From assembly GCA_964470515.1 (NCBI GenBank), contig CAYYDD010000002.1, positions 3,764-67,763 of the forward strand: 64,000 bases of DNA, in the 5' to 3' direction. Source of the DNA: an uncultured Eubacteriales bacterium (GTDB lineage: Bacteria > Bacillota > Clostridia > Oscillospirales > Acutalibacteraceae). Position 1 is the first letter of the stretch. The number at the start of each line of letters is the position of its first letter. Position numbers and translations under genes: made by a program. The notes under the pieces are model-generated. The model did no database searches, was not told the DNA's origin, and saw nothing but the letters and a program-made list of their open reading frames with translations. Below, one piece after another: positions 13,599-16,673 of the stretch.

Positions 13599-13735
13599 GA
13601 AGCTCCGTTCTTGCGAACGGCTGTTTTCACATCGCGTAGCCGTCAAAAACCGATGAAGTAACAGCGGAACGACCACGCCGTCTTTTGGAATACCAATAAA
13701 TTTTGAGGATTTATGGTTGTTTTTTGATTTTCCAC

Positions 13736-13763
13736 TTGACATTCCTCCGGATTTTGTTATAAT
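13736..13763 (+). promoter_or_regulatory. Near-consensus sigma-A promoter of tRNA-Pro.
   Basis: TTGACA (13736-41), 16-nt spacer, TATAAT (13758-63), 20 nt upstream of the tRNA. Confidence 0.75.
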
Positions 13764-13783
13764 AGTTGTCACAGCTGAAAAAT

Positions 13784-13860
13784 CCGGGTGTAGCGCAGAT
13801 TGGTAGCGCGCTTGAATGGGGTTCAAGAGGCCGCAGGTTCGACTCCTGTCACTCGGACCA
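13784..13860 (+). tRNA. tRNA-Pro (anticodon GGG), with encoded CCA.
   Basis: Manual cloverleaf: acceptor CCGGGTG/CACTCGG (one G-T pair), U8, D stem GCGC/GCGC, anticodon stem CTTGA/TCAAG with loop A-T-GGG-G-T, T arm GCAGG-TTCGACT-CCTGT, discriminator A, CCA. Total 77 nt. Confidence 0.9.
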
Positions 13861-13865
13861 TATTA

Positions 13866-13900
13866 GCACGATGGTTTTGATACGAAACCATTGTGCTTTT
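13866..13900 (+). terminator. Rho-independent terminator of the tRNA.
   Basis: gcacgatggttt-tgatac-gaaaccattgtgc (12 bp stem, one G-T pair) followed by tttt. Confidence 0.8.
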
Positions 13901-13956
13901 CTATGTTCAAAAAGCCTTGTGTTGCAAGACTTTTTGCTACTTCTACAATAGCATTA

Positions 13957-14130
13957 GTTTCATTGTATCAAAGCAGCCTGCATGAAAGTCCGAGTTAGAG
14001 GACTTAATCCTCCCATTTTTCTATGTACAAACATTGCAATGAAACTTTTATTTTGGATTAGTTTCGTTGTGGTGAGAAAAGTTTCATCGTGACTGAAATA
14101 GTATCATTGTGCCATGTATATGTTTCATTG
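13957..14130 (+). repeat. Left array of the GTTTCATTG-type motif (6 copies).
   Basis: gtttcattg at 13957; caatgaaac (inverted) at 14037; gtttcgttg at 14061; gtttcatcg at 14081; gtatcattg at 14101; gtttcattg at 14122. The last four are spaced 20/20/21 bp. Confidence 0.8.
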
Positions 14131-14136
14131 ATAAAT

Positions 14137-14176
14137 AAAAAGGACTTCCAATACGGTGATTAGTATTGGAAGTCCT
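14137..14176 (-). terminator. Terminator of the restriction endonuclease gene.
   Basis: aggacttccaatac-ggtgatta-gtattggaagtcct (14 bp perfect stem), with a T run on the minus strand. Confidence 0.85.
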
Positions 14177-14181
14177 AAATA

Positions 14182-14808
14182 TTAGTCTAAATATTTTTTG
14201 AGATACGCATTAAAATGGTGTATCAATTCTTCATTTCCCATTTGTGGACGCCACATAAAGAAATTTTTGTCATATGTATCGAACCAAAATGCAATTTCAC
14301 GGTTTCGCTTCGGATCTCTCGTGATATCACCTTCAAGAACAACCCAAAAAGGAAGAACTTCCGTATCAGTTATACCGCTTGCCTCGCGATACTTTTTTAT
14401 CAATCCCGGAGTGAACAGCTTGCACATTCTTTCGTGCGCATTTCCTCTGCCTGCACTTGGGTCTTTTCCTTCGACCCATCCATCTTGGCGTTTAATTTCT
14501 CCGAATAAAATTTTACCCGTTCTTGTATTTTGAATCGAAAAGTCGGGAGAGACACCCCAACCACGACTCCTGGCGGTTTCCATAGTTCTTTCATCAGGAC
14601 AAAAAATTTGTGCGAGCGTTTCCTCACTTAATACCACACTCTCATAGATGTGCTTTAAGTCTGTGGGATGGTCATTGATAACATACTCTGTCCCCACGAA
14701 CGCTGCTCGGAATGCCTGTAACAAGTTCTTCTCGGCAGTTCCCGCAAGGCCTCCAGGACCAGACTCCGTCTGCCAATTATCACGTTTGCTGAGTTCTGCT
14801 TTTGCCAT
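14182..14808 (-). CDS. Type II restriction endonuclease, PD-(D/E)XK, MunI/EcoRI-like.
   Basis: The catalytic pattern SPDFSI..(13 aa)..GEIKRQ is PD...E-I-K as in R.MunI. Its size (208 aa) is close to the roughly 200 aa of R.MunI. It follows a C protein and faces an MT-A70 methyltransferase, which is the munI locus layout as I remember it. Confidence 0.65.
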   Translation of the reverse strand: MAKAELSKRDNWQTESGPGGLAGTAEKNLLQAFRAAFVGTEYVINDHPTDLKHIYESVVLSEETLAQIFCPDERTMETARSRGWGVSPDFSIQNTRTGKILFGEIKRQDGWVEGKDPSAGRGNAHERMCKLFTPGLIKKYREASGITDTEVLPFWVVLEGDITRDPKRNREIAFWFDTYDKNFFMWRPQMGNEELIHHFNAYLKKYLD

Positions 14809-14819
14809 GATATTTACAC

Positions 14820-15026
14820 CTACAGCTCTCTAAATAATTCTTCGAGTGATATATCTAAACCTTTTGCGATTTTTTCGATATTCACTATTGAGATGTTTCT
14901 TTTGCCATTCTCTACGGAAGCATAGTATGTTCTATCCATATCAATCGAAATGGCAAATTTTTCTTGACTAAGTCCTTTGCTTAGTCGTAATTGTTTAATT
15001 CTTTCGCCAAATCTAACCGTTATCAT
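14820..15026 (-). CDS. R-M controller (C) protein, XRE-type HTH, 68 aa.
   Basis: The start is moved to MITVRFGERIKQLR (RBS ggggggaaag). HTH LSQEKFAISIDMDRTYYASVENGKRNIS is typical of C proteins. It lies 12 nt upstream of the endonuclease gene. Confidence 0.75.
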   Translation of the reverse strand: MITVRFGERIKQLRLSKGLSQEKFAISIDMDRTYYASVENGKRNISIVNIEKIAKGLDISLEELFREL

Positions 15027-15157
15027 TACTTTCCCCCCTATACAACAATATTCTACAGCAACTGATGCCAATAAGACAACGGACTATAAGCAACATTTGT
15101 GTTGACTTTCATACATGGTGGGTGTATAATAATAAAAAAATAAAAGGATTTACCGAA
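15027..15157. promoter_or_regulatory. Divergent promoter/operator region of the R-M cassette.
   Basis: Plus strand: TTGACT (15102-07), 17-nt spacer, TATAAT (15125-30) for the methyltransferase. Minus strand: TTGTCT, 18-nt spacer, TAGAAT for the C and R genes. The inverted repeat CAACA-tttg-TGTTG (15091-15104) overlaps the -35 of the methylase promoter. Confidence 0.5.
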
Positions 15158-15847
15158 ATGAGAGAAAATAAAGACATAACCGCATACTCCTTGTATAGCG
15201 TACAAGCAAGGCAGAGAACAAAGGTCAATCCATTAGAGGATGTGTACCCGCCTTTACCAGACAAAAAATATCAAGTGATATATGCTGACCCACCATGGGA
15301 TTATGGTGGAAAAATGCAATTTGATAAAACAACCATCAAGGATGAGAATGTCGGTTTTGAGAAAAAGATTTTCCTCAGTTCTGCTACCTTCAAATATCCC
15401 ACCCTCAAACTCAAACAACTAAAAGAGTTAGATGTTGCTTCGATTGCGGCAGATGATTGTTTGCTGTTTATGTGGACTACTGGCCCTCAAATGAGCAACG
15501 CTATCGAATTAGGAACAGCATGGGGGTTTGAGTATAAAACGGTCGCTTTTGTGTGGGATAAAATGGTTCACAATCCTGGTAGATACACATTAAGTCAAAC
15601 AGAGTTTGTACTTGCCTTTAAGAAGGGTAAGTTCCCTCAACCCAGAGGAGCAAGAAATGTGCGACAAATGGTACAGGTCCATCGCGGCGCACATAGCGTT
15701 AAGCCTATCGAAGTGATTGCTGGAATTACTAAAATGTTCCCCGAACAAGGAAAAATTGAATTGTTTGCAAGAAACAACTATGTGGGCTGGGATAACTGGG
15801 GTCTTGAAATTCCCGATAGTAAAATCGATATTAAAACTGGTATATAA
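15158..15847 (+). CDS. MT-A70 family N6-adenine DNA methyltransferase (M.MunI-like).
   Basis: The DPPW motif (VIYADPPWDYGG) is followed by CLLFMWTT. The start is moved to MRENKD (RBS aaagga). Confidence 0.8.
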   Translation: MRENKDITAYSLYSVQARQRTKVNPLEDVYPPLPDKKYQVIYADPPWDYGGKMQFDKTTIKDENVGFEKKIFLSSATFKYPTLKLKQLKELDVASIAADDCLLFMWTTGPQMSNAIELGTAWGFEYKTVAFVWDKMVHNPGRYTLSQTEFVLAFKKGKFPQPRGARNVRQMVQVHRGAHSVKPIEVIAGITKMFPEQGKIELFARNNYVGWDNWGLEIPDSKIDIKTGI

Positions 15848-15873
15848 AATCTAATTGGTCTTGTTCATAAGGA

Positions 15874-15943
15874 GGTTTCACTTTCCGTGCTATGGTTTCA
15901 TTTTCAAGTGAAACCTTTTGAAACCATATGAAACCGTATCATT
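15874..15943 (+). repeat. Right array of the GGTTTCA/TGAAACC motif (5 copies plus a gtatcatt variant).
   Basis: ggtttca at 15874 and 15894 (20 bp apart). tgaaacc at 15909, 15919 and 15929 (10 bp apart, inverted). gtatcatt at 15936. Confidence 0.8.
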
Positions 15944-16050
15944 ATTATCAAAATAATTCAAGTAAAGATAATCCGAACGCAATCTTCCAAAATGGAGACG
16001 TGTTCGGATTTTCCGTTTCTATTGATAATATTCTTTAATGCACATAAAAA

Positions 16051-16077
16051 CTGCGCTCAACTGGAGCGCGGTTTTTT
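16051..16077 (+). terminator. Rho-independent terminator in the island with no intact gene directly upstream.
   Basis: ctgcgctc-aactg-gagcgcgg followed by tttttt. Confidence 0.65.
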
Positions 16078-16163
16078 GCGTGGTTTTGAGATTTGTATGA
16101 TATAGTATTGTTAAAATCAGATTGGGCGGTACCGGTATAGTTGTTGCAATTCATCCAAAAGCA

Positions 16164-16239
16164 TTGAATTTAACAAAAAATGCTGTATAATTAAAAAACA
16201 GGTTGTCATTTTTTCTGTCAAAAGGTGTACCTTTTGACA
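16164..16239 (+). promoter_or_regulatory. Orphan promoter plus perfect palindrome.
   Basis: TTGAAT (16164-69), 16-nt spacer, TATAAT (16186-91). Then TGTCAAAAGG-tgta-CCTTTTGACA (16216-16239). Only a 24-codon ORF follows (16249..16323, MVNSKKLREKTVMPLTENQAAQIA). Confidence 0.45.
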
Positions 16240-16330
16240 AGGCCATTCATGGTTAATTCTAAAAAACTGCGAGAGAAAACCGTGATGCCCTTAACGGAGA
16301 ATCAAGCAGCTCAAATTGCATAAAGTTCCA

Positions 16331-16507
16331 TTATAAGCCGAGGCGGAAAATCAAAGCTTTATGTAAGTATTTTTTCAATAGTTCGGTGGCAGGCGGATCG
16401 GTGGGATCGTTCGTGCCCAGCTTGCCACGGAAGGCATCGGCAAGGATAGACTTTTTTATAAGGTCGATTATATTCAGTATTTGTTCTTTAATTATATCAA
16501 CATTTAT
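16331..16507 (-). pseudogene. Relic of a type I R-M specificity subunit (hsdS), C-terminal roughly 58 codons.
   Basis: The minus-strand translation is ..IIKEQILNIIDLIKKSILADAFRGKLGTNDPTDPPATELLKKYL... This is the conserved HsdS C-terminal helix motif (AFRGxL..QDPxDEPAxxLL). It has no start codon and is preceded by a stop. Confidence 0.6.
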
Positions 16508-16673
16508 TCTTAATAATCAAGTATACAATTCGATTACAGGATTGTAACGTTGTAGGTGTTACAATGATGTGTGACACCTACAGAGTCACGCACTGTTTTT
16601 CTTTTGAACTGTTGAATTGTGGGGCGGGGTGTGATACAATGAGCAAAATCGCAAGGCACAAGGAGGGGACAGT

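Follow-up and report, generated by a model that had tools for sequence, protein, structure and literature searches.

The stretch of DNA analysed here, 64,000 nucleotides of an uncultured member of the Acutalibacteraceae (contig CAYYDD010000002.1 of assembly GCA_964470515.1; hereafter the window), carries an island of ~38% GC that begins directly after a tRNA-Pro(GGG) gene and lies inside a host of 56-60% GC. The island encodes a MunI-family restriction endonuclease, a small helix-turn-helix (HTH) protein and an N6-adenine methyltransferase, which together form a compact cassette with the layout of a type II restriction-modification (R-M) system, MunI-like in kind. Judging by its position upstream of the endonuclease gene, the small HTH protein is probably a controller (C) protein. 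On both sides the cassette is bracketed by arrays of short repeats with a GTTTCA core, for which an earlier note on this DNA had proposed three meanings: the ends of a non-autonomous element, the iterons or centromere of a decayed plasmid or integrative and conjugative element (ICE), or operators of some regulator. Here we report comparative evidence that window positions 13861-15960 represent a 2.1-kb remnant or hitch-hiker without a recombinase of its own, descended from a phage whose serine integrase targets the CCA end of tRNA genes, and that the arrays are probably arms of its attachment sites.

All eleven GTTTCA-core copies of the left and right flanks were found at the positions and with the phasing first described (Table 1). 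Within the left tandem array the steps are 20, 20 and 21 bp, and the copy at 14100 is a GTATCA variant. A motif count, which had been put forward as a genome-wide check and was made here over the whole window, gave no overall enrichment: the GTTTCATTG 9-mer with one mismatch was observed 20 times against 14.7 expected, and GGTTTCA eight times against 7.8. The same count revealed extreme clustering in the two arrays. Six of the 20 near-matches to GTTTCATTG are packed into 175 bp and five of the eight GGTTTCA into 62 bp, while in 5000 first-order Markov simulations with the AT-rich composition of the island the largest cluster never exceeded two for either array. The clustering is therefore far beyond chance.

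A search with the left-array pattern returned contigs that carry the whole left-hand layout of the window directly 3' of a tRNA CCA. In this layout the tRNA 3' end with its CCA is followed by AATAAG and by two hairpins, the first of which has the loop TTTTGATAC; then come a single GTTTCATTGT and, 70-90 nt further on, an inverted copy and the tandem array, which in the relatives comprises 2-7 copies with a 20-bp period. The distal single site lies at the equivalent position in L050, L064, L067, L069, L075, L089/L120 and L124 (loci compared are cited by their L numbers), and an inverted ACRMTGAAAC precedes the tandem array by 15-17 nt in the relatives of the window's array type. The first hairpin of the relatives, compared by eye, differs in stem sequence and keeps the loop TTTTGATAC. 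tRNAs with different acceptor ends are joined at CCA to the same element sequence. Inward of the left array come cargo genes and then an immA/immR immunity region (L047, L120), followed further inward in L047 by cro-like and early phage genes, including a DUF2800 exonuclease. The tandem array switches motif between lineages, for instance to AATCGTTGAA or CGTTTCATTTTT, and in L073 a GGTTTCA right array is paired with a left array of AATCGTTGAA.

For the right-hand side, IMG/VR was searched with a pattern of three TGAAACC at 10-bp spacing. Eight contigs carry the whole right-hand layout, that is, a pair of GGTTTCA with a 20-bp step, a triplet of TGAAACC with 10-bp steps and finally GTATCAAtATTATCAAcTGTTGCCA, and the module aligns gap-free across these relatives. 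The three proximal heptamers keep their sequence and 10-bp register in all eight, bar one substitution in L073, and the 3-nt spacers vary. Both distal GGTTTCA stand at the window's spacing in L033, L034, L040, L046 and L073; L036 keeps the second and reads GGTTCCA at the first, and in L041 both are flipped in place to TGAAACC, giving all five sites one orientation. The module is found directly 3' of the last gene in a tailed-phage late/lysis region. The gene order in L032, L034/L040 and L036 is holin, Amidase_2-LysM endolysin, a 130-aa HTH/zinc-finger protein (HTH130) and two large serine recombinases (LSRs) of 428 and 528 aa (LSR428 and LSR528), with one extra gene sometimes placed between LSR528 and the right module; such an operon precedes the module in the majority of cases, though not in every one. 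In L046 the LSRs are several kb from the right module. Neither INPHARED nor PLSDB held a match to the module. L046 also encodes, between its LSR operon and its right module (L046 4733-7558), a third serine recombinase of 610 aa and an ATPase of the AAA_25 (RepA/KaiC-like) type; these may represent another element nested within the end of the prophage.

From these comparisons we take each array to be a conserved module that marks one end of tailed prophages found in IMG/VR. One 61-kb contig, IMGVR_UViG_3300045988_168310, carries on the same strand a tRNA-Pro with the left module (L124) and the LSR operon with the right module (L040/L309). The relatives belong to the tailed temperate phages of gut Firmicutes and have holin and endolysin genes and an immA/immR-cro region, and no Rep or Par gene stands beside either array in the loci annotated, which does not fit the decayed plasmid or ICE of the earlier note.

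The junctions of this phage family define its attachment sites. In L073 the end of the right module is immediately followed by the beginning of the left one (...TGAAACC GTATCATTATTATCAACTGTTGCC|AAATAAGAACCGTAATTTTGATAC...), and L033 shows the same right-to-left join over 20 nt at a contig end; we interpret this join as the unintegrated attP. Over 48 bp the attP so read forms an imperfect palindrome, GTATCAAAAyTATC-N-CA-N-GATArTTTTGATAC, with the CA of CCA at its centre. Its P half measures 25 nt, from the first base to CA, in 12 of 12 loci and starts with GTATCA in ten of them, L312 and L301 having a one-base variant. The P' half measures 26 nt, from CCA to GATAC, likewise in 12 of 12 (the window and 11 relatives), and in the 11 relatives reads CCAAATAAG-N9-TTTTGATAC. 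The consensuses of the two halves match at 13 of 16 outer positions. As for the integrated forms, attL was seen in 12 loci at various tRNAs and attR in at least nine, and the near-identical phages L034 and L040 diverge immediately 3' of ...TTGCCA. A metagenome scan supplied attB as an uninterrupted tRNA-CCA followed by AAAGATAATCCGAAC, and many uninterrupted tRNA genes of gut Firmicutes continue CCA|rACAAAGATAATCCGAAC...GTTCGGATTATTTG. A comparison with empty tRNA-Pro sites had been suggested to fix the element ends; empty tRNA-Pro(GGG) sites do occur in L264, L283 and L256, but no syntenic one was found in the relatives examined.

The four forms attP, attB, attL and attR, taken from different contigs and not from one strain pair, are related by half-site exchange without duplication. 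The adjacent LSRs have Resolvase, Recombinase and Zn_ribbon_recom domains, and their PDB sequence matches include the SPbeta and TP901-1 integrases and TnpX. Because of the size, symmetry and central dinucleotide of the site, the duplication-free exchange of half-sites and the adjacent SPbeta/TP901-1/TnpX-related recombinases, we assign the system to the serine integrases and regard the attP of the family as an LSR-type attachment site. On integration attP would be split, which leaves P' next to the tRNA in attL and P at the distant end in attR. The GTTTCA repeats would thus not be the recombinase sites themselves, as one suggestion had been; the true sites would be the adjacent GTATCA.../...TGATAC half-sites. 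On the host side, the post-CCA terminator rACAAAGATAATCCGAAC...GTTCGGATTATTTGTTTT was seen at Leu, Ser, Pro and other tRNA genes of gut-metagenome contigs (loci L245-L300). One terminator common to many tRNA genes would thereby provide these phages with the same B' arm at a number of tRNAs.

More diverged LSR relatives have other motifs beside the same half-site: TAGTTTG/CAAACTA in L317, AGTTTCA/TGAAAC in L312, TGCACACC in L366, L357 and L380, and GGTTGCA/TGCAAyC in L301. A loose P half-site pattern, whose matches were mostly due to chance, yielded as the sole informative one among the matches listed a CGCTAACGATTTAT array beside a GTATCAAAATTATCA half-site in L212. In a diverged LSR subfamily (L365, L378) we observed a mirrored arrangement downstream of the LSR gene, in which the half-site GTATCAAAATTGGTGTCCAGTTA|TGG on the LSR side abuts, by eye, an apparent tRNA CCA end on the opposite strand; L378 has three copies of the palindrome CACGCTCacgtgGAGCGTG.

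Against this background the window can be read as follows. Each of its half-sites, including TTTTGATAC and the P pattern, occurs once in the 64 kb. The sequence at 15936, after the last TGAAACC, had been recorded as a degenerate gtatcatt variant of the repeat and is the start of the 25-nt half-site GTATCATTATTATCAAAATAATTCA. Since both half-sites stand at the exact spacing of the family, we place the element bounds at 13861-15960, which would imply an empty-site junction ...CACTCGGACCA|AGTAAAGATAATCCGAAC and a circle junction ...TCAAAATAATTCA|TATTAGCACGATGG. The family-level comparison thus locates the ends of the element where the arrays are, as the earlier note had anticipated. Its idea of a non-autonomous element inserted after tRNA-Pro holds as far as the bounds go (attL 13858-13860, attR 15959-15960) and is not supported for the transposase or Tn7 type, there being no DDE transposase among the genes annotated and no target duplication. 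No LSR (by tblastn) and no HTH130 homologue is encoded anywhere in the window; as the relatives do have LSRs, the element would be a recombinase-less derivative and not an autonomous member of the family. It combines an attL and an attR with a lack of recombination genes, and related autonomous elements exist, as expected of an att-flanked non-autonomous element. In the simplest history, a prophage with a MunI-like system in its cargo slot would later have lost all between the cargo and the right arm; the phage body was probably removed by deletion.

Table 1. Coordinates of the features of the tRNA-Pro island in the 64-kb window
Feature	Position	Strand	Basis or remark
tRNA-Pro(GGG)	13784..13860	+	ARAGORN, Rfam; 3' CCA at 13858-13860 is the predicted integration point and B arm of attB
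attL P' half-site CCATATTAGCACGATGGTTTTGATAC, 26 nt	13858..13883	+	predicted crossover at CA, 13859-13860
Element-supplied tRNA terminator hairpin (putative)	13865..13897	+	terminator scan; DNA fold z-score -7.95; loop carries outer P' half-site
Distal single left-arm site AGTTTCATTGT	13956..13966	+	~95-110 nt from CCA
Inverted left-arm site	14036..14046	-	reads AGTTTCATTGC on the minus strand
Left tandem array	14060..14131	+	four 11-nt sites, at 14060, 14080, 14100 and 14121
Endonuclease-gene terminator hairpin, convergent with left array	14141..14176	-	terminator scan and inverted repeat
MunI-family type II restriction endonuclease (cargo)	14182..14808	-	Pfam PF11407, E = 8e-61
Small HTH (XRE-type) protein (cargo)	14820..15026	-	Pfam HTH_3; 68 aa as called in Logan contig L001
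MT-A70-family N6-adenine methyltransferase (cargo)	15158..15847	+	Pfam PF05063; 229 aa as called in L001
Right-arm distal sites	15874..15900	+	GGTTTCA at 15874 and 15894
Right-arm proximal sites	15909..15935	-	TGAAACC at 15909, 15919 and 15929; 10-bp period; abut P half-site
attR P half-site GTATCATTATTATCAAAATAATTCA, 25 nt	15936..15960	+	predicted crossover at CA, 15959-15960
B' arm, putative displaced host tRNA terminator (AGTAAAGATAATCCGAAC...GTTCGGATT)	15961..16028	+	75-81% identical to the terminator directly after CCA of uninterrupted tRNA genes elsewhere, the empty tRNA-Pro(GGG) sites of L264, L283 and L256 among them

A second unit of this kind lies in a related host, L301 (GCA_017503785.1; cyclase 83% identical in protein sequence), where a ~1-kb mini-element occupies the same tRNA-Pro. 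It consists of a P' half, a decayed left array, one 135-aa open reading frame (ORF), a GGTTGCA/TGCAAyC right array and a P half, and shares with the window the junction variants CCATATT and ATAATTCA. The L301 mini-element and that of the window therefore suggest that minimal att-flanked units recur. At ~5520-5861 of L301, a full tRNA-Pro is followed by ~190 nt of GC-rich DNA, next by a copy of ~36 nt from its 3' half and finally by the P' half-site, as though another, different integrative element had accreted at this tRNA. In two related genomes (L301, L306) the tRNA-Pro gene is divergent from the cyclase gene and the intergenic region is common to both; at window 13719-16673 the tRNA and the element are inverted with respect to L301 and L306, and ~700 bp of extra AT-rich DNA precede the cyclase gene. 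Within that neighbourhood, window 16029-16548 is AT-rich, has no ORF above 53 aa, no Rfam match and no similarity to any locus compared, and contains several hairpins, among them a perfect 11-bp palindrome (16216-16239) and a terminator-like hairpin on the minus strand (16053-16069).

The only public contig with the exact endonuclease is Logan contig L001 (SRR14307646), a 100% match to window 13862-15939. Its left end falls within 2 nt of the predicted attL crossover and its right end 21 nt short of attR, inside the right arm. The contig ends may reflect assembly-graph branching with a related element in the sample, or low coverage; the end at 13862 is suggestive of mobilisation in trans, but ambiguous.

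A scan of species-representative genomes found the MunI-like cassette conserved as a unit in 29 loci of Acutalibacteraceae, Lachnospiraceae, Oscillospiraceae, Negativicutes, Sphaerochaetaceae and Desulfovibrionaceae, with endonuclease protein identities mostly of 60-85% (loci L003-L031, several phyla). DNA homology of these 29 relatives is restricted to window 14177-15850, stop codon to stop codon, and their flanks are free of GTTTCA clusters. The arrays as part of the R-M cassette are ruled out on these grounds, and homology that ends at the stop codons across phyla points to repeated gene-only transfer.

In the window the cassette occupies the slot just inside the left array, and in the phage relatives the same slot holds restriction and defence genes. 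R-M systems found there are of the HpaII type (L047) and the HaeII type (L120), C5 methylases with an unnamed 197-aa ORF (L053) and a MutH-like endonuclease with a C5 methylase (L064). Other occupants are the nuclease GmrSD (L106) and, recognised from sequence motifs only, a McrC-like protein (L075) and an HNH protein (L083). L047 also has a hairpin at the equivalent place after its left array. This slot is the family's usual site for restriction and other defence cargo. As a separate observation, a related genome has an Eco57I-like type IIG R-M gene downstream of the same tRNA-Pro without arm modules (L306 2219-5506), so that the tRNA-Pro locus would be a hotspot for defence genes regardless of the element.

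What the arrays do has to be weighed next. We consider it probable that they are attachment-site arms of tRNA-CCA LSR phages and, most likely, binding sites of an accessory protein. The P-side arm would comprise three heptamers at 10-bp spacing that adjoin the half-site and, ~14 and ~34 bp beyond them, another two; on the P' side the arm would consist of two hairpins, a single site, an inverted site and then the tandem array with its 20-bp period. We propose that the arrays are double-stranded DNA sites to which an accessory protein binds; this protein would be encoded by the phage as part of the recombination module, assemble on one helix face beside the P and P' half-sites and control integrase access, the pairing of attL with attR or the direction of recombination. 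Their role would be like that of the arm and Xis sites of tyrosine-integrase systems, placed on a serine-integrase catalytic core. The invariant heptamers, free spacers, flipped distal sites of L041 and absence of a fold in the left array together fit protein recognition of double-stranded DNA and not structure, and the switching of array motifs between lineages points to a co-evolving, phage-encoded partner. The leading candidate for the binder is HTH130, encoded just upstream of both LSR genes. Of 14 loci checked, the 13 with enough upstream sequence all have the complete operon HTH130-LSR428-LSR528, and HTH130 diverges fastest, with 36-78% identity against 62-88% for LSR528. It corresponds to phrog_2308, with an N-terminal HTH that gives weak Sleeping-Beauty-PAI-like matches and C-terminal zinc fingers. 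As the window encodes neither accessory protein nor LSR, its own sites would be orphans that act only with a related helper phage in trans.

Several observations weigh against this interpretation. In L041 and L073, which carry the right module, no LSR was seen within the 5-8 kb of sequence available, and most LSR relatives below ~85% identity lack an array recognisable by a simple 7-mer count. The arm motifs of L073 are unrelated to each other, so the two arms may bind different proteins or differ in their job. The characterised serine integrases use simple sites of 40-50 bp without accessory sites, to go by the portions of the published accounts available, and an accessory role would therefore be unprecedented for serine integrases. 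As to the element itself, no syntenic empty site is available for the host, the cyclase-gene neighbourhood being rearranged in every relative examined, and the boundaries accordingly rest on the family-level comparison of junctions. The window also departs from the consensus in its inner P half (AAATAATT vs CTGTTGC) and at the start of P' (TATTAG vs AATAAG). These variants are partly common to L301 and L380, whose P halves also end in TTCA; decay may be an alternative cause.

An unlikely alternative is that the left array, with or without the right one, serves replication or partition as an iteron origin or a ParR/TubR-type centromere of the excised circular phage, in which both arms have been rejoined around attP. 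The 4-7 tandem direct repeats at two-helical-turn spacing with one inverted copy are the classic iteron/parC layout, the motif changes between phage lineages as iterons do, and the heptamer presumably resembles box A of P1 parS and half of the chromosomal parS. Yet these phages integrate, and their arrays lie at the attachment site and not in a replication module, the DUF2800 exonuclease region of L047 being ~7 kb away. The earlier note had asked after a transposase, Rep or Par gene as a neighbour, and none was found beside the arrays in the annotated loci; specifically, no Rep, ParA/ParB, ParM/ParR or TubZ/TubR gene flanks either array in any of them. The three 10-bp slots hold an exact register with the integrase half-site across lineages, which an iteron or centromere would leave unexplained.

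Nor do we think it likely that the arrays are operators or roadblocks, bound by a phage regulator of the integrase operon or of the cargo slot, or insulating the tRNA against convergent transcription of the cargo, with no part in recombination. Their placement would suit such a task: the right array has the stop codon of the last gene on one side and the terminator on the other and is overlapped by weak promoter-like matches, the left array is enclosed by the tRNA-side terminators and that of the convergent cargo gene, and in L050 the gene beside the left array is co-directional with it and starts ~150 nt after it. However, the adjacent cargo gene is convergent in the window, L047, L053, L064, L075, L106 and L120, so that the left array is not upstream of a gene to regulate, and the promoter-like matches on the right array score only 9 of 12. 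Outside the arrays the motif is absent from the available parts of the phage relatives, the immR-cro intergenic region of L047 included, and repressor operators of the immunity region were rejected for this reason. An operator-type role for some regulator is less likely than a role in recombination.

A structured nucleic acid, with a GGTTTCA/TGAAACC hairpin in the 3' untranslated region of the integrase operon or in single-stranded DNA as the functional unit, is very unlikely. The right array does fold better than all of 200 shuffles both in the window and in L034 (z-score ~-3.9), but in L041, where all five sites point the same way, its fold is no better than chance (z-score -1.5). From the flipped distal sites of L041 it follows that the predicted right-array hairpin is not conserved. 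The heptamers are invariant instead of covarying, the left array has no single-strand structure (z-score -0.06), and in the Rfam scan the tRNA was the sole family matched, with nothing at the arrays. Tn7-like or other transposase-bound ends of a non-autonomous R-M transposon are scarcely credible: the element does have groups of short sites at its two ends, loose in one and dense in the other and with opposite prevailing orientations, which resembles such ends, but no DDE transposase or TnsABC-like gene is among the annotated ORFs of the relatives and of the window around the island (the whole window was searched only for LSRs and HTH130), the junctions share only CA/CCA without target-site duplication, the same arms flank tailed prophages of 40-60 kb, and the attP, attB, attL and attR forms fit conservative site-specific recombination.

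Returning to the reading of the arrays as attachment-site arms, the closest known systems are the serine-integrase sites of phiC31, Bxb1, A118, TP901-1 and SPbeta. Shared with these are the ~48-bp imperfect inverted repeat, the central dinucleotide, the att forms related by simple half-site exchange and the adjacent protein with Resolvase, Recombinase and Zn_ribbon_recom domains. Directionality factors of the characterised serine integrases bind the integrase and are not known to bind DNA. The present system differs from the serine-integrase systems in having two LSR genes and a small HTH/zinc-finger gene in one operon, and in targeting the CCA end of several different tRNA genes. Whereas the characterised sites, as far as the accounts at hand extend, need nothing beyond 40-50 bp, here phased heptamer arrays flank the core. 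Our literature search found no description of serine-integrase accessory sites or of tRNA-CCA-targeting phages with tandem LSRs; the paper on Roseburia phage Shimadzu, in the part available, deals with a different site, inside the int gene.

In layout, and in layout only, the arms resemble the attP of tyrosine integrases (lambda P1, P2, P'1-3 and X1-X2; mycobacteriophage L5), with direct and inverted short repeats flanking a core at a tRNA gene, three adjacent sites ~10 bp apart on one arm, and arms that are parted into attL and attR. Unlike these, the core is a 48-bp LSR-type palindrome in place of core-type sites of 7-9 bp around a 6-8 bp overlap, and the identity of attP and attB is limited to CCA and does not extend over a tRNA 3' segment. 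No tyrosine integrase was present among the annotated ORFs of L032, L034, L036, L041, L046, L047, L050, L053, L064, L106 and L120, most of which are incomplete contigs. Helically phased short sites, loosely set at one end and densely at the other, are a point in common with Tn7 ends, plasmid iterons and parC/parS centromeres; in contrast to these, the arrays come with no cognate transposase, Rep or Par gene and no target duplications and are tied to a site-specific core, and the outermost sequences of the element, unlike those of Tn7-like ends, are two LSR half-sites.

The element as a whole compares best with cis-mobilizable elements (CIMEs) and grounded prophage remnants, which likewise have attL and attR bounds, no recombinase of their own, an autonomous ancestor and adaptive cargo. 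CIMEs have been described for ICEs and integrative mobilizable elements with tyrosine integrases in streptococci. The element of the window differs from them in deriving from an LSR phage, in measuring only 2.1 kb and in carrying a single R-M system. The cargo slot, in turn, recalls the defence hotspots of P2/P4-type prophages, which, in the part of the account available (Rousset et al. 2022, PMC9122126), are a fixed slot near the prophage end with interchangeable defence systems. It differs in belonging to another phage family and host phylum and in lying between the attL-side array and immA/immR, and in the window the hotspot has outlived the phage.

A wider reading, which we offer tentatively as a possibility that more probably fails than holds, is that a widespread phage family of gut Firmicutes relies on a recombination module of three genes, for the small HTH/zinc-finger protein and two LSRs, whose attP departs from the simple site assumed for serine integrases in having arm-like heptamer arrays that set the direction of recombination or the pairing of attL and attR, and that helper phages move miniature defence cassettes between tRNA CCA ends. 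The arrays would then be bound by the small HTH/zinc-finger protein or by the second recombinase, and the 2.1-kb MunI-like unit and the 1-kb unit of L301 would be excised by helper phages.

An odd repeat pattern has thus been resolved into an attL, an attR, a cargo slot and a displaced tRNA terminator, and origin from such an element would explain why a low-GC R-M cassette lies beside tRNA-Pro in a high-GC genome. Serine integrases are valued in genome engineering for their short sites and independence of accessory factors. If the proposed role is true, accessory arrays combined with a tandem pair of recombinases and a generic target (a CCA end with a common terminator) would constitute a new regulatory layout, and the phage family might yield integrases with multiple, predictable targets. 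The recurrence of defence genes inside the left array, and the survival of the slot with both arms after loss of the phage, are relevant to the spread and persistence of defence systems among gut bacteria; if helper phages do move the mini-cassettes, these would represent a phage-dependent vehicle for R-M systems.

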